Assembly (NCBI RefSeq): GCF_001598795.1
Contig: NZ_BCZP01000004.1
Location: 240,001 to 272,000 of the forward strand
Source: Delftia acidovorans NBRC 14950
GTDB lineage: Bacteria; Pseudomonadota; Gammaproteobacteria; Burkholderiales; Burkholderiaceae_C
DNA length: 32,000 bases
Reading direction: 5' to 3'
Shown: positions 5,791 to 31,959 of the stretch, one piece after another
Numbering within the stretch: position 1 is the stretch's first letter
How the letters are laid out: each line of letters opens with the position of its first letter
The notes under the pieces: model-generated
The model's database searches: none
What the model was told of the DNA's origin: nothing
What the model saw: only the letters and a program-made list of their open reading frames with translations
Made by a program: the position numbers and the translations under genes

Positions 5791-6828
5791 TTAGAACGGC
5801 GCTTCTTCAGGCGCAGTATCCACGGGAGCCAGGGCCGGCCCCGTCAGCGCACCACGGCCCGAGGCCGCTGCACGCGGTGTCGCTGCGGGAGTCTGGGCAG
5901 CGGGTGTCTGCAGCGATGCCGGCAGATCCTGGCCCAGGCCCGTGCGCCCTTCCCCACCCAGCGCCTCGATCAGATCGGGGATGAGCTTGGACAGCTCGCC
6001 CGTGGCAATCGCCACATCGGCATCGAAGCCGCCGTCGTCCTGCGACTGGCCTTCCATCACGGCATCGAGCAGCGCGATCTTGCGGATCTGCAGACCCTCG
6101 GTCAGCACAAAGCTCACGCGGTCATCCCAGGTCAGCGCCAGGCGCGTGGGCAGCTTGCCGTGCTCGATATGCTGGCGCACCTCGTCGATGTCCAGCGGAT
6201 GGCGCGCATAGCGCACCACGGCCTTGGATTCGTCGGCGGCCTTGAGCTCGCATTCACGGTCAATCGAGAAGCCGGCCGGGCTTTCCTGCGTGGTCAGCCA
6301 GTGCGCCATGGCAGCCTGGGCGCTGGTCTGCGTATCGACCAGGGCCAGCGCAAAGCCAGTGAGGCCCTCCACCAGCGCGCTGACCACCTCGTCGGCGCGC
6401 GCCTGGCTGCCCGTGTCCAGCACCAGGGTGCGGGCCTGCGGGTCCAGCCAGACCCACATGGCGCCCTGCTTGGTGAAGGCCATGGGCAGCAGGTCCAGCT
6501 TGGCCTCGTCCTTCAGTTCCTTCTTTTCCTTCTTGCCCGGCTTGCGGCCTTCGGTGGCCTCGATGTGGGCAGCCTTTTCGTTGACGCGGCGGTTGAGCAC
6601 GCTGGCCGGCAGCATCTTGGCCTCGGTCATGAAGCGCATCACCCACTGATTGGCCACGGACTCGGCCAGCGGGCCATGGGGCTCGCCGCGCGGCGGCACC
6701 CAGCCGGCGCTGCGCTCCTGCGTGGCGCCGCACTCGGCAAACGGGCTCTTGCCCAGGGCTTCTTCAAGCTGCTGCAAATCGCCCTGCCAGCTCTCGGCAA
6801 TGCGATAGACGATCATGTTTTTGAACAT
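5791..6828 (-). CDS. rdgC: Recombination-associated protein RdgC
   Basis: MFKNMIVYRIAESW...SAGWVPP...LALTWDDRVSFVLTEGLQIRKI is the RdgC family pattern. The start is moved to ATG 6828, because the upstream 79 codons of the track ORF are Cys/Arg-rich nonsense. The last ~45 aa form an Ala/Pro/Thr-rich tail. Confidence 0.85.
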   Translation of the reverse strand: MFKNMIVYRIAESWQGDLQQLEEALGKSPFAECGATQERSAGWVPPRGEPHGPLAESVANQWVMRFMTEAKMLPASVLNRRVNEKAAHIEATEGRKPGKKEKKELKDEAKLDLLPMAFTKQGAMWVWLDPQARTLVLDTGSQARADEVVSALVEGLTGFALALVDTQTSAQAAMAHWLTTQESPAGFSIDRECELKAADESKAVVRYARHPLDIDEVRQHIEHGKLPTRLALTWDDRVSFVLTEGLQIRKIALLDAVMEGQSQDDGGFDADVAIATGELSKLIPDLIEALGGEGRTGLGQDLPASLQTPAAQTPAATPRAAASGRGALTGPALAPVDTAPEEAPF

Positions 6829-6911
6829 AGCGAACCTTTGCTCGGACGGACTGCGGCTGCGCCGCAGCAGGGGTGTGCAACACCGGGCTGCGTCGCCTCC
6901 ATCCAGAGGGA

Positions 6912-6953
6912 GAAAACAGAAAAAACAGCAGGGGCGCCATGCCTTGGCGCCCC
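6912..6953 (-). terminator. Terminator-like hairpin on the minus strand, in the rdgC upstream region
   Basis: 9-bp GC stem GGGGCGCCA-TGCCT-TGGCGCCCC (6931-6953). On the minus strand it is followed by TGCTGTTTTTTCTGTTTT. The U-run begins 5 nt after the stem, which is not ideal. Confidence 0.3.
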
Positions 6954-7138
6954 GCCCGGTCATTGTGCATGCCTGGCACCGGACGGCGCTGCACAAGCTT
7001 GTCAATTCTTTACAAGCCGTGCGCAAAACCTCACTGCCCCGATACATCGGACGACCACACTTCAATCATCCGCTGCACAGGGCTCGCCAAGTGCCTTGAC
7101 GGCGGCCTTCAGTCACCCTCTCCAGAAAGGATTTTGGA

Positions 7139-7860: not shown

Positions 7861-8493
7861 ATGGCCCTCAAAATCATTCAAACGACGCCATCCAGCTACC
7901 AGAGCCTCGCCAAGGCACGCATCCATCCGCCAGCACGCCTGGCAGCGACCGTGGTGCTGGCCTGCGCAGGCGCTGTCCTGCCGATGGCGACCCAGGCGCA
8001 ATCCTTGGCGCCGGAATCCTCCCCTTCCATGTACCTGCAATATGGCGCGGCCGAGCACAGCGCCGACAGCTGGACCCTGGGCGTTACTGTGCCCTGGCGC
8101 AACTGGCGCCATGCGCTGTGGGGCGGCCAGCTCAGCGGCTACTGGGATATCTGGGGCGCCCGCTGGTCGGCGCCGCTGGAGGGTCGCGATCGCGGCACCT
8201 GGGTCATCGGCGTGAATCCCACCGTGCGCTGGCGCCCCAGCAACGGGCAGTCACCCTGGTTTGCAGAAACCGGCGTGGGCCTGAGCTGGGCACTGAACCG
8301 GCGCTACATCACGGACGAGAAGGAATTCCCCACGCGCTACAACTTCGCCACCCATATCGGCGTGGGCTATCTGTTTGGCAGCCAGGGCCAGCATGAGCTG
8401 GTGCTGCGGCTGGAGCACCATTCCAACGCAGGCATCAAGAAACCCAACCCCGGCGAAAACTTCCTGCAGCTGCGCTACGCCCACCATTTCTGA
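7861..8493 (+). CDS. pagL: Lipid A 3-O-deacylase (PagL family outer-membrane acyloxyacyl hydrolase)
   Basis: Signal sequence, beta-barrel-like alternation, a catalytic-type HHSNAG...NPGEN motif and a C-terminal aromatic residue (AHHF). ATG 7861 is preceded by GGAGAAG. The track ORF opens at 7753, inside the upstream terminator. Confidence 0.75.
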   Translation: MALKIIQTTPSSYQSLAKARIHPPARLAATVVLACAGAVLPMATQAQSLAPESSPSMYLQYGAAEHSADSWTLGVTVPWRNWRHALWGGQLSGYWDIWGARWSAPLEGRDRGTWVIGVNPTVRWRPSNGQSPWFAETGVGLSWALNRRYITDEKEFPTRYNFATHIGVGYLFGSQGQHELVLRLEHHSNAGIKKPNPGENFLQLRYAHHF

Positions 8494-8513
8494 TCACGGT
8501 TGCGGATCCCGGC

Positions 8514-8541
8514 AAGACCACCTTCGAGGTGGTCTTTTTTT
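8514..8541 (+). terminator. Rho-independent terminator after pagL
   Basis: AAGACCACC-TTCGA-GGTGGTCTT followed by a T-run through 8541. Confidence 0.75.
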
Positions 8542-8595
8542 GTCCTCAGCCGCCCTGTGGAAAAACCTGGGCATAAAAATCTCGTAAATCCCTGC

Positions 8596-8604
8596 TTATC
8601 CACA
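8596..8604 (+). promoter_or_regulatory. DnaA box, perfect consensus TTATCCACA
   Basis: Exact 9-mer read in the sequence. Confidence 0.8.
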
Positions 8605-8714
8605 AGGAGGATGCGCCATGGAAAGTTGTGCCCAAAACGGGTGCAGCAGCGGAGCAGCATCCACCACAGGGTTTGGAGTGTCTTAAGTTGTTGATTTTTA
8701 TAAGACAAATTCAG

Positions 8715-8752
8715 TTATCAACAATTAAGCACTTCACTTACTACTACTACTA
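8715..8752 (+). promoter_or_regulatory. Origin module 1: DnaA box TTATCAACA, 14-nt spacer, five trinucleotides TTA-CTA-CTA-CTA-CTA (DnaA-trio-like)
   Basis: Box at 8715-8723 and trinucleotide array at 8738-8752. The bottom strand reads 3'-AAT GAT GAT GAT GAT-5'. ATTAAAAAATAAGAGAGAT follows. Confidence 0.55.
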
Positions 8753-9023
8753 ATTAAAAAATAAGAGAGATAGGAATAACAGCCAAGGGCGGTTTTTCAC
8801 AGCGGCAAGACCGTTCTGGATAAAAAAAGGCAGCCGGTCCGTCAGGAAAAACGGCCTGTCAACAGGTCACAGCACTGCCAGACCATGTGCTCATCCATGT
8901 CCGGCAAGCCTCATTTTTATCTGGATAAACTGAAAAATCCTTATAGATCAATAACTTGAAGTTCAATAAAGGAAAAAATGCACCTCGCACAAAACTGTGG
9001 ATAGATGAAGACCAACTCAACAG

Positions 9024-9032
9024 TTATCCACA
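9024..9032 (+). promoter_or_regulatory. DnaA box, perfect consensus TTATCCACA, paired with the inverted TGTGGATAG at 8996-9004
   Basis: Exact 9-mer. Its inverted partner is 19 bp upstream. Confidence 0.8.
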
Positions 9033-9142
9033 GAAAAAATCGAAACAGGCAAACTATCCCCGTTCGGGAGACACCGGGAACAGGGCTTTGATCACATGTT
9101 TTTCAATCGGGCAAGACATTGTTTTTTTTGAGGAATAGTGAG

Positions 9143-9180
9143 TTATCCACAGAGATGTCATGCCTCTACTACTACGACTA
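9143..9180 (+). promoter_or_regulatory. Origin module 2: perfect DnaA box TTATCCACA, 14-nt spacer, CTA-CTA-CTA-CGA-CTA (DnaA-trio-like)
   Basis: Box at 9143-9151 and array at 9166-9180, followed by TTCTTTATAAGAAGAT. It aligns with module 1 as AGTTATCnACA-N15-TACTACTACnACTA-...-ATAAGA. Confidence 0.55.
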
Positions 9181-10042
9181 TTCTTTATAAGAAGATCAAA
9201 GAACAACCGAAGGCGAAGTCACGCGGGAAGCGAAGGCCGAACGGGTTTTCAAAAAAACAGACGTGCCAGGTTGTCTGGAGCCTGGGCATGTCCAGACGAG
9301 GGACTGCTCCAGCGAAATTGGCGCGCCTGTGTTCAAAAAATTCCGGATCGGTTCGCGCGCCATGGCCGTATGCACGAAGACAAGACTTCTTCGCGGCCTC
9401 GCAGGAACGCTGTGGAACGGGCGCTTTTCCACAACGGGCTGTGCACTGGACGTGGAAGACTTCAGGAAAGCGCGGCCTGCCAGGCGGACGCAAGCGGATG
9501 CGCCAGAGGCAGTGTTCGGTCATTCAAAAAAATTCAACCCCTTGTTGCCGGCCTGCAAGAGCACTGCGCATCCAGATCAGGAGCAGCCGATCCAGTCCAG
9601 GCAAGGGCAATCACGAAAAGTGATGGCTGCTGACGCGCCGGGGCAAGAGGACGTGAATCAGCCCGAGCGCTTCAGCGGCCTGCAGAGGACCGTGGGGGCT
9701 TGGCAGCTGTCAGGCCCTGGGTTGCATGCGCAAGCGCGTCCTGGGCGTTCTGCAGGCCTGTTGGCGAGGTATGTTGGCGGGTATGGCCGGGCCGGGGAGC
9801 AGGCACGGTCTGCGAGATCCAGCGGTATCCCGCGGGATCCGGGGACCGTGCTGCACAGGCATGCAGGGAGATGCGGGAGCCGGGAAATACGGTTGCCCAC
9901 AGGCTGTGTGCAAGTGGCCTGTGGGCAATCGGCAAGCTCGCTGATTGAAAAAATCAGCCGTGATCAATCACTTGCGTATGCAAGGGAATGCAGTGGCGAC
10001 AGGGCGCGGCCTGTTTTTCGCATGCTTTCCACAGGGTCCGGT

Positions 10043-12217
10043 TCAGCGTGCCGGGCGGCGCTGCAAGGCAAAGGGCGGCAGGCCCTTGAGCAGCTGCTGG
10101 CCATAGCTGGTGTTCACCAGGCGCCGGTCATAGCAATACACATGGGCCTGGTCTTCCTCGGTGCGGATGGCGCGGCCCACCCACTGGGCCAGGCGGATCG
10201 CCGTGGCCGGCACCACCAGCTCATTGAAGGGGTTGCGGCCGCTGCTGCGCAGCCATTCGGCCCGGGCCTCGCCCACGGGGTCATCGGGCGGGGCAAAGGG
10301 CAGCTTGGTGATGAACAGGGACTCGCACAGCGCGCCGGGCAGGTCCAGGCCCTCGCCGAAGGACTGCATGCCGAAGATGATGGAGGGCTCGCCCATCTCC
10401 ACGGCATCGCGGTGGCGGGCCAGCAGCAGGGCGCGGGGCATGGCCGTCTGCACCAGCACCTGCGAGCGCATGGCCGTGGACAGCGCATCCACCGCCAGGC
10501 GCATCTGTTCGCGCGAGGTGAACAGCACCAGGGCGCCGGCCTGCACGTGGGACAGGTCGCCCAGCAGCGCGTCCACCATCTCCTGGGTGAAGCGGGCGGC
10601 CTCCTTGGGGTCGGCCACGGTTTCGCGCGCCACCAGGGTGCCCTGGCGCGCGTAGTCGAAGGGGCTAGGCACTTCCAGCGTGGTCACGGCCGCATCGTCG
10701 TGCAGGCCTGCTTCGCGCAAAAAGAAGTCGAATTGTCCACAGCTGGTCAGGGTGGCCGACGTGAGCACGGCACCGCGCACCTGGGACCACAGATGGTGGC
10801 GCAGCGTGGCTCCGGGCAGGATGGGGCTGGCATGGGCCTTGACCACGATGTACTCGCCATCTGTCTCCAACGTGAACCATTTGGCATTGGGAACGCGGCT
10901 ACTGTCGTCATCCTGCGCTGGTTGCTGCATCAGCAGCTGGGCCGTGTCATAGACGGATTCCAGGCGGGGTGCCAGTGCGCCAACCTGTGCATAAGCTGTA
11001 GACAGCCTGCGTGCTTCCTCTGGATTGTCCTTGATGGCGGCGCGCAGTGCCTTGGAGATGGCACGCAGCGCGTCCAGAAAGCTGTTGGCATGGTGGGCGG
11101 CCTTGCCCAGAGGCTCCAGCAAGGGCTCGGGCAGCATGCCGCGCGGTGCACGCACCCGCGCCGGCCCCCAGCTGTCCTTTTGCGACTTGAGCGTGTCGCC
11201 GTACAGCTCCATCACCAGGCGCGCCAGTTCCAGCAACTGCTGGCGCAGCTGGCTGGCATGGGCTGGAAGGTCTGCCAGCTCTTCGACCTCGACCATAGTG
11301 TTCACGCGCAGGGCGCGGCTGGTCAGCTTGTCTATCCAGCCCAGGCGGCTCAGGTCCATCTCGCCAGCGAATTGGCCCAGCGCCGTGGCGGGCAAATGGT
11401 GGGCTTCGTCCAGCACCAGCAGGCAGTTGTCCAGCTCGGGCAGCAGCCGCGCGCCCAGGGAGGACAGCAGCAGATCGTGGTTGGCCACGATGACCTGGGC
11501 GGCCACCAGGTCCTTGCGGCGCTCGTAGTAGACGCAGTTGCTGAAGGCCGGACAGTGCTTGCCGGTGCAGGACGAGGATTCGGCCGCCACGGGGCTCCAG
11601 GCCTCGGCCTCGGGCGGGGTCTCCAGAGAGTCGCGGTCGCCGTCCCAGGCCTGGGACGCCAGCGCGTTGGCCATGCTTTTGTAGAACTGCATGCGCGCCT
11701 CTAGCTCCTGGGCCGGGCGTGCCACGCGGCTTTGGGCCTGCGCCTTTTCTTCGGCGAACAGATCGTCCAGATCCTCGTCCTGGGCCTCGCCGGTGCTGGC
11801 CAGCCGCTCCAGCTTGAGCTTGCAGACAAAGCGGCCCCGCCCCTTGGCCAGCGCGAATTTGAAGGGCTGCTCCAGTTGCTGGGCCAGCGCGGGCAGATCC
11901 TTGTTCACCAGCTGTTCCTGCAGGGCGACGGTGGCCGTGGAAATCAGCACCCGAGTGCCGCGCGCCAGCGCCATCGAAATGGCGGGAATGCTGTACGCCA
12001 GCGATTTGCCCACCCCCGTTCCGGCCTGCACCACGGCAATGGACCGGGTGGGCTCCGGTGCGCCCTCATCGATTTTTCCCAGCTGGGCCTGGCTGAAGGT
12101 CTGCGCGATCTGGGCCGCCATTTTTCGCTGCCCCTCACGATTTCGGAACCCTGGGATGGCCCCGACCACGTCATCAAAGGATTTCAGGGCCTGATCAGCC
12201 CATTTTTTTTCATGCAT
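10043..12217 (-). CDS. dinG: ATP-dependent DNA helicase DinG (XPD/Rad3-like, Fe-S cluster)
   Basis: 724 aa with Walker A AGTGVGKS, DEAH box (VLDEAHHL) and a Cys cluster (FVCKLK...SSSCTGKHCPAFSNCVYY) typical of DinG-family helicases. Confidence 0.85.
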   Translation of the reverse strand: MHEKKWADQALKSFDDVVGAIPGFRNREGQRKMAAQIAQTFSQAQLGKIDEGAPEPTRSIAVVQAGTGVGKSLAYSIPAISMALARGTRVLISTATVALQEQLVNKDLPALAQQLEQPFKFALAKGRGRFVCKLKLERLASTGEAQDEDLDDLFAEEKAQAQSRVARPAQELEARMQFYKSMANALASQAWDGDRDSLETPPEAEAWSPVAAESSSCTGKHCPAFSNCVYYERRKDLVAAQVIVANHDLLLSSLGARLLPELDNCLLVLDEAHHLPATALGQFAGEMDLSRLGWIDKLTSRALRVNTMVEVEELADLPAHASQLRQQLLELARLVMELYGDTLKSQKDSWGPARVRAPRGMLPEPLLEPLGKAAHHANSFLDALRAISKALRAAIKDNPEEARRLSTAYAQVGALAPRLESVYDTAQLLMQQPAQDDDSSRVPNAKWFTLETDGEYIVVKAHASPILPGATLRHHLWSQVRGAVLTSATLTSCGQFDFFLREAGLHDDAAVTTLEVPSPFDYARQGTLVARETVADPKEAARFTQEMVDALLGDLSHVQAGALVLFTSREQMRLAVDALSTAMRSQVLVQTAMPRALLLARHRDAVEMGEPSIIFGMQSFGEGLDLPGALCESLFITKLPFAPPDDPVGEARAEWLRSSGRNPFNELVVPATAIRLAQWVGRAIRTEEDQAHVYCYDRRLVNTSYGQQLLKGLPPFALQRRPAR

Positions 12218-13020
12218 TTCGGCGTGTTTTGACCAAATGGATCATCTTGGTCCATCTGTTTATAAAGATTCGTACAGTGATATGTATTAAATAAGATGCG
12301 AAATCTTATGAAATACAGCGCACAAAGCGCGTTTTTCGTATGCCGTACAGCCTACAAGCTGCCCGTCATATGGATCACTGAACCCGCCAATCGCATGTAT
12401 GCACAGGTGGGTATCGGTCACCGGGATGGACATCTGTCCACCGGCTGTTCCTGGATTGTTCCCATGGCCGTTGATGGCCATGCGCGTGGCCACATCCACA
12501 GTCTTGCCCACAGCAGCCAGGGCGTTCGGCCTGTGATCAATCCTGTGTGCATGTTGTTGGCATGCTTGTGGATTGATTGGGTGATTGTCGCCATTCACCG
12601 TTGATTTGCAACGGATTTTTCATGGGTTCAGGTTCCCCGCGATTTCCAGAAGATGGTGGAAGTTGTCACCACTGTGGAAAACAGGGCCTGTGCAGATCTT
12701 TGGCTTTGCAGAGCACGCTTTTCCCCGGGATATCCACAGATCTGCGGCCGCTGCAGCTGCTGCGGCTGGGGCCTTGGTGCACCGCCAGGCGGCAGGTCCG
12801 CGGCGGCGCAGCGGATCGCGCTGGTTCTCGAAAAAGCGCAGGCGATCCCTGCCAGGGATCGGCCCCGGGCGCCGGCCCAGGTACGCGAATGTCTTACCAA
12901 ACGGTAATGAAGGCTTCACGCACGCAGGAAGATGCGTTTTCTAGCATCTGTTTCATCTCAGGAGACAAGGGTCGGCTCGCTGCAGTCCCTGCGCTCCAGG
13001 CATGGATTGAAGGGGCAAGA

Positions 13021-25413: not shown

Positions 25414-28167
<2,754 letters not shown>

Positions 28168-28195: not shown

Positions 28196-29314
28196 TCAGA
28201 TGCGCATGGGCATCACGACGTACTTGAAGCTGTCGTTCTCGGGGATGGTCAGCAGGGCCGAGCTGTTGCCGTCCTGCAGGTCGATCCTGATCATGTCCTG
28301 GCTCATGTTGGACAGGGCGTCGATCAGGTAGGTGACGTTGAAGCCGATCTCGATGGTGTCGCCACCGTAGTCGATGTCCAGCTCGTCCATGGCCTCTTCC
28401 TGCTCGGCGTTGTTGGACGCCACGCGCAAGGTGCCGGGCTCCACCGTCAGGCGCACGCCCTTGAACTTGTCGCTGGTCATGATGGCCGTGCGCTGCAGGC
28501 TGGCCAGCAGCGGGGCGCGGCCCAGGGTCACGCTGTTGGTGTGGTTGCGCGGGATGACACGGTTGTAGTCGGGGAACTTGCCCTCGACCAGCTTGGTCAC
28601 GAACTCCATGCCGCCAAAGGTGAACTTGGCCTGGTTGTTGGCGAACTGCATCTCGATATGGGGCTGGTTCTCGCCACCGGCATCCGACAGCAGGCGCTGC
28701 AGCTCCAGCACGGTCTTGCGCGGCAGGATCACTTCCTGCTTGGGCACTTCCACGTCCAGCTGGCTGCTTGCGAACGCCAGGCGGTGGCCGTCGGTGGCCA
28801 CCAGGGACAGCTGCTTGCCTTCGGCCACGAACAGGATGCCGTTGAGGTAGTAGCGGATGTCCTGCACGGCCATGGCGAAGGAGACCTGGCCCAGCAGGTC
28901 CTTGAGCACCTTCTGCGGCACGCTGAAGGAAGGGCCGAAGGCCGCAGCCTCCTGCACCAGCGGGAAGTCCTCGGCCGGCAGGGTCTGCAGCGTGAAGCGG
29001 CTCTTGCCGCCCTTGAGCACCATCTTGGCCTGCTGGGTCTCCAGGCTCACGGTCTGGTCGCCGGGCATGGTCTTGAGGATGTCGATCAGCTTGCGCGCGC
29101 CCACGGTGGTGGTGAAGTCGCCGGTGTCGCCGCCGAGCTCGGCGGTGGTGCGGATCTGGATTTCCAGGTCGCTGGTGGTCAGCTGCAATGCGTTGCCGGT
29201 CTTCTTGATCAGCACGTTGGCCAGGATGGGCAGCGTGTGGCGGCGTTCGACGATGCCGGACACCGATTGCAGGACCGCGAGAACTTTGTCTTGTGTGGCT
29301 TTCAGGACGATCAT
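28196..29314 (-). CDS. dnaN: DNA polymerase III beta subunit (sliding clamp)
   Basis: 372 aa: MIVLKATQDKVLAVLQSVSGIVERRHTLPILANVLI...YVVMPMRI. It holds the canonical position between dnaA and gyrB. Confidence 0.95.
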   Translation of the reverse strand: MIVLKATQDKVLAVLQSVSGIVERRHTLPILANVLIKKTGNALQLTTSDLEIQIRTTAELGGDTGDFTTTVGARKLIDILKTMPGDQTVSLETQQAKMVLKGGKSRFTLQTLPAEDFPLVQEAAAFGPSFSVPQKVLKDLLGQVSFAMAVQDIRYYLNGILFVAEGKQLSLVATDGHRLAFASSQLDVEVPKQEVILPRKTVLELQRLLSDAGGENQPHIEMQFANNQAKFTFGGMEFVTKLVEGKFPDYNRVIPRNHTNSVTLGRAPLLASLQRTAIMTSDKFKGVRLTVEPGTLRVASNNAEQEEAMDELDIDYGGDTIEIGFNVTYLIDALSNMSQDMIRIDLQDGNSSALLTIPENDSFKYVVMPMRI

Positions 29315-29435: not shown

Positions 29436-30842
29436 TCAACCTTTGAGAGTTTGCTCCAGCACGTGCAGCTGCTGGTTCAGCTCGGTCAGTTGCTGGCGTT
29501 CGCCGGCGATCTTGCGCACCGCGTGCAGCACGGTGGTGTGGTCGCGCCCGCCGAACAGCTCGCCGATCTCGGGCAGGCTCTTCTGGGTCAATTCCTTGGC
29601 CAGGTACATGGCAATCTGGCGCGGCCGGGCGATGCTGGCCGGGCGCTTCTTGCTGTACATGTCGGCCACCTTGATCTTGTAGTAATCGGCCACCGTCTTC
29701 TGGATGTTCTCCACACTGATCTGGCGGTTCTGGATGGACAGCAGATCACGCAGGGCCTCGCGGGCCAGCTGGATGGAGACTTCCTTCTGGTTGAAGCGCG
29801 AATAGGCCAGGATCTTGCGCAGCGCGCCTTCGAGCTCGCGCACGTTGGAGCGCACGTTCTTGGCCACGAAGAAGGCGACTTCCTCGGGCATCTCGGCGTT
29901 CTCGGCGCGGGCCTTGTTGATCAGGATGGCCACGCGCATCTCCAGCTCGGGCGGCTCGATGGCCACCGTCAGCCCGGAGTCGAAGCGCGATACCAGCCGC
30001 TCGTGGATGTTCGCCAGACCCTTGGGATAGGTGTCCGAGGTCATCACGATGTGGCTCTTCTTGGCCAGCAGCGCCTCGAAGGCGTTGAAGAACTCCTCCT
30101 GCGTGCGGTCCTTGTTGGCGAAGAACTGCACGTCGTCGATCAGCAGCAGATCCAGCGAGTGGTAACGCTCCTTGAATTCGTCAAAGGTGCGGCGCTGGTA
30201 GGCCTTGACCACATCCGAGACGAACTGCTCGGCATGGATGTAGAGAACTTTGGCGTCGGGCTTGTCGGCCAGCAGCTTGTTGCCCACGGCATGCACCAGG
30301 TGGGTCTTGCCCAGGCCCACGCCGCCGTAGATGAACAGCGGGTTGTACAGGTGTCCGGGCGAGCCCGCCACATGCATGGCGGCCGAGCGTGCCATGCGGT
30401 TGGCCGTACCTTCCACCAGGGTCTCGAAGGTCAGCGCGGCGTTCAGGCGCGTGCGAAAGACGGGCGCTGCCGCGTCTTCGCTGGTGACCGTGGGCACCGA
30501 GGTGACGATGGTTTCCGGCGGGGCCGAGCGCTCGCTGGAGGAGGGGCGGACGTAAGTCCGCACAACGCTTTCCCGCTGAGCAAGTGCCAACTCAAGCGTC
30601 ACCGGCTGGCCATAGAGCGACTCCAGCATGGCCGAGATGCGGCCTGCATATTGGGCGCGGATCCAGTCGAGCTTGAAGCGGTTGGCCACGTAGACGGTGA
30701 CTTTGGAGAAGTCTTCGGCGACGTGCGCGGTCAGGGGCTTGATCCAGGTGTTGAACTGCTGTTCGGGCATTTCCTGCCCCAGTTGCTCAACGCAGACTTG
30801 CCACAGGCCCTGGCCTGCATCGTTCGTAGGTTCCTCTGTCAT
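29436..30842 (-). CDS. dnaA: Chromosomal replication initiator protein DnaA
   Basis: Walker [19 protein letters not shown], and the domain IV DNA-binding helix ([15 protein letters not shown]). Confidence 0.95.
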
Positions 30843-30856
30843 TGTCGAAGTCTAGT

Positions 30857-30865
30857 TGTGGATAG
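30857..30865 (-). promoter_or_regulatory. DnaA box (TGTGGATAG, one mismatch) in the dnaA upstream region
   Basis: Read directly, 15 nt upstream of the dnaA start codon. Confidence 0.6.
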
Positions 30866-30906
30866 GAGGAACTGTTGCGAGGCTGCCATTGTAGCTTTTG
30901 CGGAAG

Positions 30907-30915
30907 TTATCCACA
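30907..30915 (+). promoter_or_regulatory. DnaA box, perfect TTATCCACA, in the dnaA/rpmH intergenic region
   Basis: Exact 9-mer. Probably a dnaA autoregulation site. Confidence 0.7.
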
Positions 30916-31256: not shown

Positions 31257-31391
31257 ATGAAACGTACTTACCAACCCTCCAAGACCCGTCGCGCCCGCAC
31301 CCACGGCTTTCTGGTCCGCATGAAGACCAAGGGCGGCCGCGCCGTGATCAACGCTCGCCGCGCCAAGGGCCGCAAGCGTCTGGCCGTCTAA
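31257..31391 (+). CDS. rpmH: 50S ribosomal protein L34
   Basis: [44 protein letters not shown], 44 aa. Confidence 0.95.
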
Positions 31392-31449: not shown

Positions 31450-31959
31450 ATGCAACGGCTGAAAACACGTCCGCAGTTTCAGGCCGCCATGGCTGCCGGT
31501 ACGGTATCGCGTACCGCGCATTTCGCCCTGCACCGTCTCGTTCTGACGGAGCAGGGCGGCGCCATGGCGCCACCGACAGGGCCCGGGTCGCAAGACCCGC
31601 AGGCCCTGTTCGGCGTTGGCGCCGTGCGCCAGGATGCTTGGCTGGGCGCCATGGTGCCCAAGCGCTGGGCGCGCCGCTCGGTGACGCGACACACCATCAA
31701 GCGGCAGATCTATGCCGTGGGCAGCGAGCATGAGACCCTGATGCTCCAAGGCGCCCATGTGGTGCGGCTGCGCTCGGGCTTTGACCGGCGCCAGTTCGTG
31801 AGCGCCACTTCTGATGTGCTCCGGCAGGCCGTGCGCGCCGAGCTGCAGCAGTTGTTCGCCTATGCGGCGAAACGCCTGTCGCAGCCTGCGCCCGAGCTCC
31901 CGCAGCCCGCACAGGAGCGCGCCGCAGCCGCTGGCGAGAGCATCGGGGTTGCGCCATGA
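31450..31959 (+). CDS. rnpA: Ribonuclease P protein component
   Basis: Conserved position after rpmH, with RNase P protein motifs (LKTRPQFQ, KRWARRSVTRHTIKRQIY). At 169 aa it is longer than the usual length. Confidence 0.85.
   Translation: MQRLKTRPQFQAAMAAGTVSRTAHFALHRLVLTEQGGAMAPPTGPGSQDPQALFGVGAVRQDAWLGAMVPKRWARRSVTRHTIKRQIYAVGSEHETLMLQGAHVVRLRSGFDRRQFVSATSDVLRQAVRAELQQLFAYAAKRLSQPAPELPQPAQERAAAAGESIGVAP

Follow-up and report, generated by a model that had tools for sequence, protein, structure and literature searches.

The 32,000-nt stretch of Delftia acidovorans NBRC 14950 DNA analysed here (contig NZ_BCZP01000004.1, positions 240,001 to 272,000; hereafter the window) carries, in the gap between the genes pagL and dinG and some 20 kb away from dnaA, what its sequence features mark as the chromosomal replication origin (oriC) of a genome of the Delftia acidovorans group. 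As far as can be read from the DNA, this origin is made up of two tandem paralogous copies of a core of ~230 bp and a right-hand cluster of DnaA boxes. Each copy ends in a module, called M1 and M2, that consists of a proximal DnaA box, a 14-nt spacer, a run of DnaA-trio trinucleotides and an AT-rich tail. Neither the location of the origin nor M1 is new, both having been predicted for this species in public sources that list the orthologous module of strain SPH-1 (DoriC ORI92220055; Pelliciari et al., 2021, Table S1); it is only the duplication that appears to be undescribed. From our point of view, both units may well be functional DnaA-assembly and unwinding modules; M1 would be the likelier primary site in this genome, and M2 a second one that backs M1 up or works together with it. 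To this reading we would assign a probability of roughly 0.55.

According to the rules published for the basal unwinding system (BUS) of bacterial origins (Pelliciari et al., 2021; PMC8287927), a DnaA box with at most two mismatches is followed, after a spacer of 0-16 nt (13 being the commonest), by three or more NAN trios, read on the strand complementary to 5'-TTATCCACA-3', with GAT or AAT preferred nearest the box and a second, weaker tandem box in the spacer as an optional element (57% of predictions). We re-implemented this search, with trio scores deduced from Table S1 of that study, and in the 32 kb, on both strands, it returned two candidates with a score of at least 9, M1 and M2, and no others. 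M1 combines a box with one mismatch (TTATCAACA), a spacer of 14 nt and six trios (score 20), and M2 a perfect box (TTATCCACA), the same spacer length and three uninterrupted GAT trios followed by GCT and GAT (score 12), so that both conform to the published rules on box, orientation, spacer and at least three trios. None of 2000 shuffles contained two candidates of score 12 or more, and none reached a score of 20. The exact pattern TTATCMACA-N14-YTACTACTAC likewise has precisely two matches in the 32 kb (8715 and 9143, both on the plus strand and 428 bp apart) where 0 are expected, and an independent repeat search returned a 33-nt direct repeat with the same spacing of 428 (D1; 8691-8723 and 9119-9151, 73% identical).

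The original prediction, made from the letters of the window, had proposed two like-oriented modules of box, trinucleotides and AT tail at this distance, one copy with an imperfect and the other with a perfect box, and in these points it is fully borne out. Its identification of the bottom-strand trinucleotides as the DnaA-trio motif is equally sound, as their orientation matches the Bacillus subtilis and Escherichia coli rows of Table S1, in whose notation, which gives the complement of the top strand, the box reads AATAGGTGT and the GAT trios come after it; in both modules the CTA repeats lie 3' of 5'-TTATCCACA-3', as in those two rows. With regard to the spacer, the length of 14 nt stands, and the N15 that was also given has to be dropped as an artefact of reading the repeats in the TAC register. 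Given one common trio register, the spacer measures 14 nt in every relative. A second box within the spacer is recognisable in M1 (TTAAGCACT, three mismatches, and four in SPH-1) and not in M2 at up to four mismatches, and the spacer sequence is unconserved between species.

The study of Pelliciari et al. (2021) searched the DoriC origins of 2070 species for BUS elements, and in its Table S1 the entry for D. acidovorans SPH-1 (NC_010002, ORI92220055) reads AATAGTTGT-T-AATTCGCGA-AGTG-AATGATGATGATGATTAA, at 28227-28186, which is the complement of window positions 8715-8755 with one base different. BUS elements with a spacer of 14 nt are given there also for Comamonas testosteroni, Acidovorax citrulli, Polaromonas, Ramlibacter and Alicycliphilus. 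Since the published program keeps for each genome the single candidate with the top trio score, M2 is unlisted.

Around the modules, the same order of elements recurs in both units. Counted from the proximal box of the module as position 0, a reverse box (-159 in unit 1 and -147 in unit 2) is followed by a forward box of presumably high affinity at exactly -119, weak forward boxes, an element at about -30 that resembles an integration host factor (IHF) site or A-tract, and the proximal box itself, after which come the 14-nt spacer ending in G/C, three to six trios and an AT-rich tail of ~30 bp. From left to right, the features of the origin are:

8556-8564, minus strand: distal DnaA box of unit 1, TGTGGAAAA on the top strand, one mismatch; at -159 from the M1 box in 20 of 20 Delftia and Comamonas genomes and also in distant double-unit contigs.
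8596-8604, plus strand: perfect forward DnaA box of unit 1, 119 bp upstream of the M1 box (118-119 across genomes).
8625-8633, plus strand: weak box-like site of unit 1, TTGTGCCCA, three mismatches, within the conserved AAGTTGTNCCCAAA, a block in the 17-species alignment.
8684-8696, minus strand: IHF-like site AATCAACAACTTA (= WATCAANNNNTTR), 19 bp upstream of the M1 box.
8715-8723, plus strand: proximal DnaA box of M1, corresponding to the upstream box of the published SPH-1 BUS.
8724-8737, plus strand: spacer of M1, 14 nt, composed of A, the degenerate box TTAAGCACT and TCAC; fixed in length, varying in sequence by species.
8738-8755, plus strand: trios of M1, TTA CTA CTA CTA CTA ATT (bottom strand 3'-AAT GAT GAT GAT GAT TAA-5'), the same as in the Table S1 entry.
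8756-8782, plus strand: AT-rich tail of M1, AAAAAATAAGAGAGATAGGAATAACAG, candidate DNA unwinding element (DUE) 1; an AT peak and, in a simplified calculation of stress-induced duplex destabilisation (SIDD), the most destabilised part of the window.
8905-8985, no strand: AT-rich spacer between the units, poorly conserved, with a reverse box TCTGGATAA at 8920 that has a second copy at 8815.
8996-9004, minus strand: distal DnaA box of unit 2, TGTGGATAG on the top strand, one mismatch; at -147 from the M2 box in Delftia, Comamonas and several distant doubles.
9024-9032, plus strand: perfect forward DnaA box of unit 2, 119 bp upstream of the M2 box; the repeat family D4, AGTTATCCACAGA, occurs with this spacing of 119 at 9022 and 9141.
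9054-9062, plus strand: weak box-like site of unit 2, CTATCCCCG (TTATCCCTG in Comamonas), a conserved block collinear with the unit 1 site at 8625.
9113-9125, no strand: IHF-like counterpart in unit 2, AAGACATTGTTTT, which on the minus strand departs from the IHF core at one position; within the direct repeat D1.
9143-9151, plus strand: proximal DnaA box of M2, perfect.
9152-9165, plus strand: spacer of M2, 14 nt, GAGATGTCATGCCT, without a recognisable second box; conserved in length, variable in sequence.
9166-9180, plus strand: trios of M2, CTA CTA CTA CGA CTA (bottom strand 3'-GAT GAT GAT GCT GAT-5'), three of them uninterrupted.
9181-9207, plus strand: AT-rich tail of M2, TTCTTTATAAGAAGATCAAAGAACAAC, candidate DUE 2, with ATAAGA and AAAGAACAAC conserved; an AT peak as in M1.
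9411-9460, no strand: third, right-hand DnaA-box cluster, with TTTTCCACA at 9425; degenerate in Delftia, TTATCCACAGAATGTTATGAACAGCTGGGGGTAA in Comamonas.
9523-9537, plus strand: conserved TTCAAAAAAATTCAA motif, with TTCAA twice at 10-bp spacing.

The conserved origin spans ~8550-9540. As such, the interval 8545-9200 in which it had been placed does contain the origin, and only the right-hand end point has to be moved, since the box cluster and the TTCAAAAAAATTCAA motif lie beyond it; in the same way, a module is indeed duplicated, and the true repeat is larger than had been described, comprising the whole ~230-bp unit with its -159/-147 and -119 boxes.

The trios of M1 carry an information content above 1 bit in 27 sequences, and those of M2 are kept across genera as YTACTACTAC(G/C)ACTA, with a 1-nt insertion after the third trio in the Comamonas aquatica group. 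The weak site of unit 1 coincides in position with a one-mismatch box at -88/-89 in three of the relatives (L103, L140 and L080). The site at 8684-8696 is the sole match to the IHF core consensus on either strand of the 32 kb, and the element reads AAGTnnTTGAT in Delftia and Comamonas and CAAGTnCTTG in GC-rich relatives, because of which its assignment to IHF is uncertain and has support in Delftia and Comamonas only. An imperfect inverted repeat (9123-9139 and 9177-9193; 17 nt, 76% complementary) brackets the box, spacer and trios of M2. The TTCAAAAAAATTCAA motif occurs once per locus, in the orientation of the window's plus strand, in 23 Delftia/Comamonas genome loci and in nine Comamonas-like metagenome contigs, 300-380 bp past the M2 box wherever both were located, and it was not found in Acidovorax-like double origins. 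It is probably the right boundary element of the origin and possibly, as an alternative, the site of a regulator.

With at most one mismatch, the DnaA box TTATCCACA occurs 17 times in the window (1.68 expected), and eight of these occurrences fall within 8556-9151, three of them perfect (8596+, 9024+ and 9143+) and five with one mismatch (8556-, 8715+, 8815-, 8920- and 8996-). Since 2000 dinucleotide-preserving shuffles of 8545-9200 contain 0.18 boxes on average and two at most, the three perfect and at least five one-mismatch boxes that had been reported are well above chance, as was claimed. Eight boxes with at most one mismatch in 600 bp, together with conserved weak boxes, all at fixed positions, agree with the DnaA-box criterion for an oriC in the preprint of Weigel (bioRxiv 10.1101/2025.08.05.668638, section 2.2.12), as does the presence of trios, which are optional there, between box and DUE. 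Elsewhere in the window, a pair of boxes lies just upstream of the dnaA start codon (30857-30915), namely CTATCCACA on the minus strand at 30857 and a perfect TTATCCACA on the plus strand at 30907. Boxes near the start of dnaA are typical of dnaA autoregulation, and this pair probably serves the dnaA promoter in that way and is not an origin.

The assignment of the origin to this region is further carried by nucleotide skew. Judged on the 32-kb window and not on the whole chromosome, the cumulative G-C minimum falls at 9061, between the two modules, with a skew of -0.066 to the left and +0.040 to the right that stays positive through the dnaA cluster and past rpmH to the end of the window. Within this scope, the region thus lies where an oriC is expected, at or near the cumulative GC-skew minimum (Weigel), and the minimum is not at the dnaA-rpmH gap, a location that the original prediction had itself named as one that would speak against it. 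That gap holds two boxes at ~60% GC, without an AT-rich element, trios or a BUS candidate, and together with the skew minimum at 9061 this led us to reject it as the origin.

It is also very improbable, in our view, that the pagL-dinG region is a DnaA-titrating or DnaA-recycling locus of the datA or DARS (DnaA-reactivating sequence) type, with the true oriC lying elsewhere, for instance beside dnaA. Such a role would be in keeping with the ~20 kb that separate the region from dnaA, with the convergent flanking genes, which are atypical of confirmed origins, and with the head-on orientation of dnaA, dnaN and gyrB relative to the fork. It is, however, at odds with the switch of the skew sign at 9061 and the positive skew from there through the dnaA cluster to the window end, as well as with the composition of the dnaA-rpmH gap. 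Moreover, trios of the BUS type, together with an AT tail, are not known from datA or DARS of E. coli. In addition, DoriC places the oriC of SPH-1 here and reports a similar displacement, of ~23-37 kb from position 1, for C. testosteroni, A. citrulli, Ramlibacter and Alicycliphilus.

That the two units are homologous becomes apparent when they are compared as families. In place of the pairwise alignment within the window we compared profiles, for each of which 27 sequences of a unit were stacked without gaps and registered on the module box, and the profiles of unit 1 and unit 2 score 52.2 at offset 0 as compared to 1.7 +/- 2.65 at other offsets (z = 19); with the boxes and trios masked, z is still 15. 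Further elements are collinear between the units, namely the weak box at ~-89, CACA at ~-55, AAGTnnTTGAT at ~-30, the A tract, and in the tail ATAAGA and (G)AAYAACAAC or AAAGAACAAC. Three of the metagenome contigs (L148 at 4734/5253, L110 at 1053/1699 and L164 at 113/734) carry two units that are near-identical over more than 100 bp, and the units are highly diverged in Delftia. Such near-identity suggests gene conversion or an independent re-duplication, and as a pattern in the sequence it would support true homology.

The distribution of the arrangement among relatives speaks for its maintenance. We compared 79 loci anchored on dinG, which come from Delftia, Comamonas, Acidovorax and relatives. 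Downstream of dinG, more than 20 species genomes of Delftia and Comamonas, whose DinG proteins are 78-99% identical, and one other Burkholderiales metagenome-assembled genome have both modules, in each case in the same orientation, with a spacer of 14 nt and with 417-438 bp between the modules; the comparison across related genomes that had been proposed as a check has hence come out in favour of the duplicated arrangement. Near dinG in Acidovorax-type loci the modules were not found, because the gene order differs. An alignment of 17 species shows sharp footprints at the boxes, trios and tails, with the 14-nt spacers and the inter-unit DNA diverging freely, and every genome compared has, for each module box, a forward box 118-119 bp upstream and a reverse box at -159 (unit 1) or -147 (unit 2).

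One exact-pattern scan of metagenome contigs returned 120 stretches, 25 of which contain two tandem modules, 379-646 bp apart and all at 55% GC or more. A stricter search by score also recovered 21 of the 25 (428-646 bp), the exceptions being the Comamonas-like L171 (439 bp), L184 (584 bp), L186 (379 bp) and L194 (439 bp). Where rdgC, pagL or dinG are present on these double-unit contigs, they flank the origin as in the window, and the rdgC-pagL side is shared by many of the double-unit loci. Box positions were checked in 16 doubles, and the -159/-147 and -119 boxes are mostly kept, with one or more missing in some (L148, L110 and L164 unit 1). Two contigs, L168 and L177, have the trios of the published A. 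citrulli module and a second module 620 bp downstream. The inter-unit distance is thus variable and the spacing within the units fixed, which, together with invariant trios and freely changing spacers, argues that both units are under selection.

In view of the same observations, it is very improbable that M2 resembles a module by chance or is left over, without function, from a local duplication. One could point to the low similarity of the two units within this genome and to the imperfect fourth trio of M2. However, two BUS candidates arose in 0 of the 2000 shuffles, and the box, spacer length, trios, tail, -119 box and -147 box of M2 are kept in more than 20 species genomes and 25 contigs in which the neighbouring spacer diverges; the near-identical units of L148, L110 and L164, moreover, are a picture of concerted evolution or re-duplication and not of decay.

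Relatives with a single unit, all of high GC content (L080, L088, L096, L113 and L185), show the same layout, with a forward box at -118/-119 and a reverse box at -159 (L080), at -158 with two mismatches (L088) or at -147/-146 (L096, L113 and L185). One unit can therefore apparently be a whole origin core. By their sequence, these contigs would serve as natural controls, with a collapse of the repeat during assembly being possible. In L088, the unit adjoins pagL, and coding DNA begins ~90 bp past the box.

Outside of this group, contigs of low GC content (40-47%, freshwater and marine; e.g., L101, L114, L129, L141 and L174, within L081-L199) have the same succession of a box, 14 nt and AAT GAT GAT GAT. 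These sites mostly adjoin dnaA or dnaN, or lie between them where both are present, in unrelated lineages whose DnaA is ~43% identical to that of the window, and the 14-nt spacer is therefore widespread well beyond the Comamonadaceae. In two further low-GC contigs (L102 at 2564 and L149 at 2825), a TTATCAACA box is followed after 2 nt by (CTA)n of 15-19 units with an enormous trio score, which may be a tract of trios that has expanded or a microsatellite that arose by chance.

By analogy to the BUS (PMC8287927), DnaA-ATP bound to the proximal box would nucleate an oligomer, which would grow onto the 3'-GAT/AAT-5' trios of the bottom strand, stretch the trio strand and melt the adjoining AT tail, and the upstream boxes of each unit would supply the remaining DnaA assembly. 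M2, with its perfect box and three in-frame trios, would then be a second competent opening site, either as a backup or in cooperation with M1. What the DNA itself shows is the anatomy of the units with its statistics, the switch in skew and the conservation; that DnaA binds and unwinds the units, and how far each of M1 and M2 would be used, is deduced from these. We consider both units to be probably functional because trios, exact spacing and tails are equally conserved in both and single units apparently suffice in relatives, and M1 to be the more probable primary site in this genome because its trio run is unbroken over five to six repeats and its DNA is the easiest to destabilise.

Where the DNA would open is a question on which composition and energetics can be consulted. 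AT content peaks at ~0.8 at +30 to +49 from the module box and is 0.65 at +50 to +69, and the segment from +23 to +70, i.e., trios plus tail, is the sole AT-rich feature common to unit 1, unit 2 and the single-unit relatives. In our own SIDD model, simplified to copolymer energetics and no more than two open runs, the easiest opening in this window is at 8683-8772 around M1 (probability 0.3-0.8), and the M2 tail reaches 0.01 at most. This lends weak support to M1 in this genome. The model also often ranks the AT-rich inter-unit spacer (8905-8985) highest. That this spacer acts as the DUE, with the box at 8996 as the analogue of E. coli R1, is nevertheless unlikely, as it has no trios, is unconserved and lies upstream of unit 2 only, being absent from unit 1 and from the single-unit relatives.

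It is, however, possible, though clearly short of even odds, that the origin has a single unwinding site, either M1, the choice of the published program, or M2. The remaining unit would then be an additional array on which DnaA is recruited or oligomerises, to be compared with the right half of oriC in E. coli or with the second box cluster of a bipartite origin, and its trio-like sequence would be kept for anchoring of the DnaA filament or for regulation and not for opening. The difference in trio score (20 for M1 and 12 for M2), the SIDD preference for M1 in this window and the break in the M2 trio run after the third trio would all fit with such an arrangement, as would the published criterion of one DUE per oriC and the fact that DnaA boxes flanking a DUE on both sides are common; two like-oriented units also offer no obvious gain for bidirectional helicase loading, as far as can be reasoned. 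On the other hand, trios, exact 14-nt spacing and AT tail of M2 are as conserved across genera as those of M1, which would not be expected of a plain double-stranded box array, and three trios are the reported functional minimum in B. subtilis. Single-unit relatives, moreover, carry either the -159 or the -147/-146 layout, suggesting that either layout can be the sole core, and the SIDD model places the easiest opening at the M2 tail in L064 and, under the lower of the superhelical stresses applied, also in L020. With regard to one DUE per oriC with a consensus box in the correct orientation at ~2 helical turns (Weigel), there are two such AT-peak sites here, and the simplified SIDD result varies by species.

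Several points weigh against our reading of two functional units and the origin call on which it is built. M2 has three in-frame trios, and its fourth is CGA or, in some Comamonas, displaced by the 1-nt insertion. Like-oriented units would free the same strand, so that a division of labour for two helicases is not obvious. Across species, the top SIDD site varies among the region upstream of the M1 box, the M1 tail, the inter-unit spacer and the M2 tail, and passive thermodynamics therefore does not decide the opening site. The pairwise similarity of unit 1 and unit 2 in this genome is weak (score 26 as compared to 18 +/- 2.4 in shuffles), which means that the duplication is old or that the units are held by shared constraints; since homology is clear at the profile level only, convergence on a common functional layout is not formally excluded. 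Furthermore, according to Weigel (bioRxiv 10.1101/2025.08.05.668638), the gene on the side of the DUE is transcribed away from it in all confirmed origins, and here dinG and pagL both point inward. Lastly, dnaA, dnaN and gyrB are transcribed toward the origin, head-on to the rightward fork and under positive G-C skew. Delftia sp. PS-11 (L003), with its origin at ~52 kb, and SPH-1, with its origin at 28 kb, would share this head-on geometry of dnaA, which suggests an old inversion or a relocation of the origin in the family.

The surroundings of the origin complete the picture. The gene order is rdgC (5791-7065, minus strand), pagL (plus strand, ending at 8493), a gap of 1.55 kb without a called gene, dinG (10043-12217, minus strand) and a cluster for czc-type resistance-nodulation-division (RND) efflux; neighbouring genes were named with the help of protein-family scans, pagL matching Pfam PF09411, and DinG is 99% identical to that of D. 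acidovorans MMO-42. Further features of the window are:

8514-8536, plus strand: intrinsic terminator of pagL, made up of a stem of 10 bp and a run of T after it; it marks the left limit of the origin region.
25414-28116, minus strand: gyrB.
28196-29314, minus strand: dnaN.
29436-30842, minus strand: dnaA.
31258-31391, plus strand: rpmH.
31450-31959, plus strand: rnpA.

The dnaA-dnaN-gyrB cluster is hence inside the window, ~20 kb to the right of the pagL-dinG region. The original prediction was right to place the origin between pagL and dinG, with the correction that dinG is on the minus strand with its 3' end toward the region, so that it converges with pagL. In a simple scan no terminator was seen for dinG, whereas that of pagL is clear. 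The stretch 9560-10042 contains no conserved open reading frame (ORF), and a hidden gene between M2 and dinG that is transcribed away from the origin was rejected, the ORFs there being short and unconserved. In the C. aquatica group other genes occupy the gap on the M2 side, and the one next to the origin likewise points toward it. The region is AT-rich, as stated, with a GC content of 0.45 at 8501-9000 and ~0.67 elsewhere in the window; to call it the only AT-rich DNA is a slight overstatement, given that 12201-12400, in the divergent gap between dinG and the czc efflux genes, has 41% GC. Two one-mismatch DnaA boxes follow further on (12673- and 12730+; 12673-12738). A plasmid replicon or mobile origin was rejected, as 8500-9260 has no blastn match in PLSDB. 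The window holds no Rfam or ARAGORN match to a structured RNA or tRNA, and a promoter scan gave one weak match that was not above chance.

The general view is that a bacterial chromosome has a single origin and this origin a single unwinding element, and origin pipelines that report a single candidate leave a second module such as M2 unreported. One could speculate, tentatively, that many Comamonadaceae (Delftia, Comamonas and Acidovorax-like) possess two individually competent tandem cores, both of which DnaA can open and either of which can fire. If true, this would be a conserved tandem dual origin under selection, homogenised by gene conversion in some lineages, and a second kind of dual origin after the separated origins of Pseudomonas. 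The arrangement makes two BUS variants comparable within one genome, which differ in their box (weak or perfect), in their uninterrupted trios (six or three) and in their AT tails. As such, it opens the questions of what sets the site that DnaA opens, whether redundant sites interfere with or back up each other, and how origins evolve by duplication and loss. This origin also breaks two rules of thumb, having convergent neighbour genes and a dnaA operon head-on to the fork. The practical value is modest and lies in origin annotation and in minichromosome design for Delftia and Comamonas.

Among known systems, the BUS (Richardson et al., 2016, 2019; Pelliciari et al., 2021) is the closest counterpart, with which each module shares the box, the 3' trios, a 14-nt spacer, at least three trios and the AT tail, M1 being one base apart from the sequence listed for SPH-1. 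It differs in that one origin here has two complete tandem modules, and in that the spacer of M2 is without a recognisable second box. DoriC ORI92220055 and the entries for other Comamonadaceae give the same locus with M1 and an origin ~20-37 kb from dnaA; this is a prediction of location, and in the material read for ORI92220055 the two-unit architecture is not described. In open-access papers and bioRxiv, no earlier account of a BUS or oriC core that is duplicated or in tandem was found for Comamonadaceae, an absence that is no proof.

The layout of E. coli oriC runs from the DUE through R1, an IHF site and low-affinity sites to R4. Each unit described here resembles a compact version of it, with a proximal box facing the DUE, an IHF-like site and weaker boxes beyond, and a distal box of opposite orientation ~150-160 bp away. 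In contrast to E. coli, there are no 13-mer repeats, the unit is doubled and the flanking gene is not transcribed away from the DUE. GATC is not enriched either (3.9/kb as compared to 5.4/kb in the whole window), so that of the hallmarks of an E. coli-type oriC, namely IHF site, GATC/SeqA and 13-mers, only the lone match to the IHF consensus 19 bp upstream of the M1 box is found.

Bipartite origins provide another point of comparison. The likeness to those of Helicobacter pylori (oriC1/oriC2) and Bacillus subtilis (incAB/incC) consists in two cooperating clusters of DnaA boxes in one origin (PMC8235120). The clusters of these bipartite origins flank dnaA, and only one of them has the DUE and trios, whereas those described here are 200-400 bp apart with no gene between them, are paralogous and have trios and an AT tail each.

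Finally, the dual origins of Pseudomonas aeruginosa (oriC1/oriC2) and those predicted for Halomonadaceae (Weigel, bioRxiv 10.1101/2025.08.05.668638) are cases in which one chromosome has several origin-like elements, each of them with a DUE and a box of the R1 type. According to this preprint, which makes no mention of Comamonadaceae or of tandem units, P. aeruginosa has the only known chromosome with two functional origins. The origins of P. aeruginosa and the Halomonadaceae are separate loci, unlike the two units of the pagL-dinG region, which stand in tandem as paralogues of each other.

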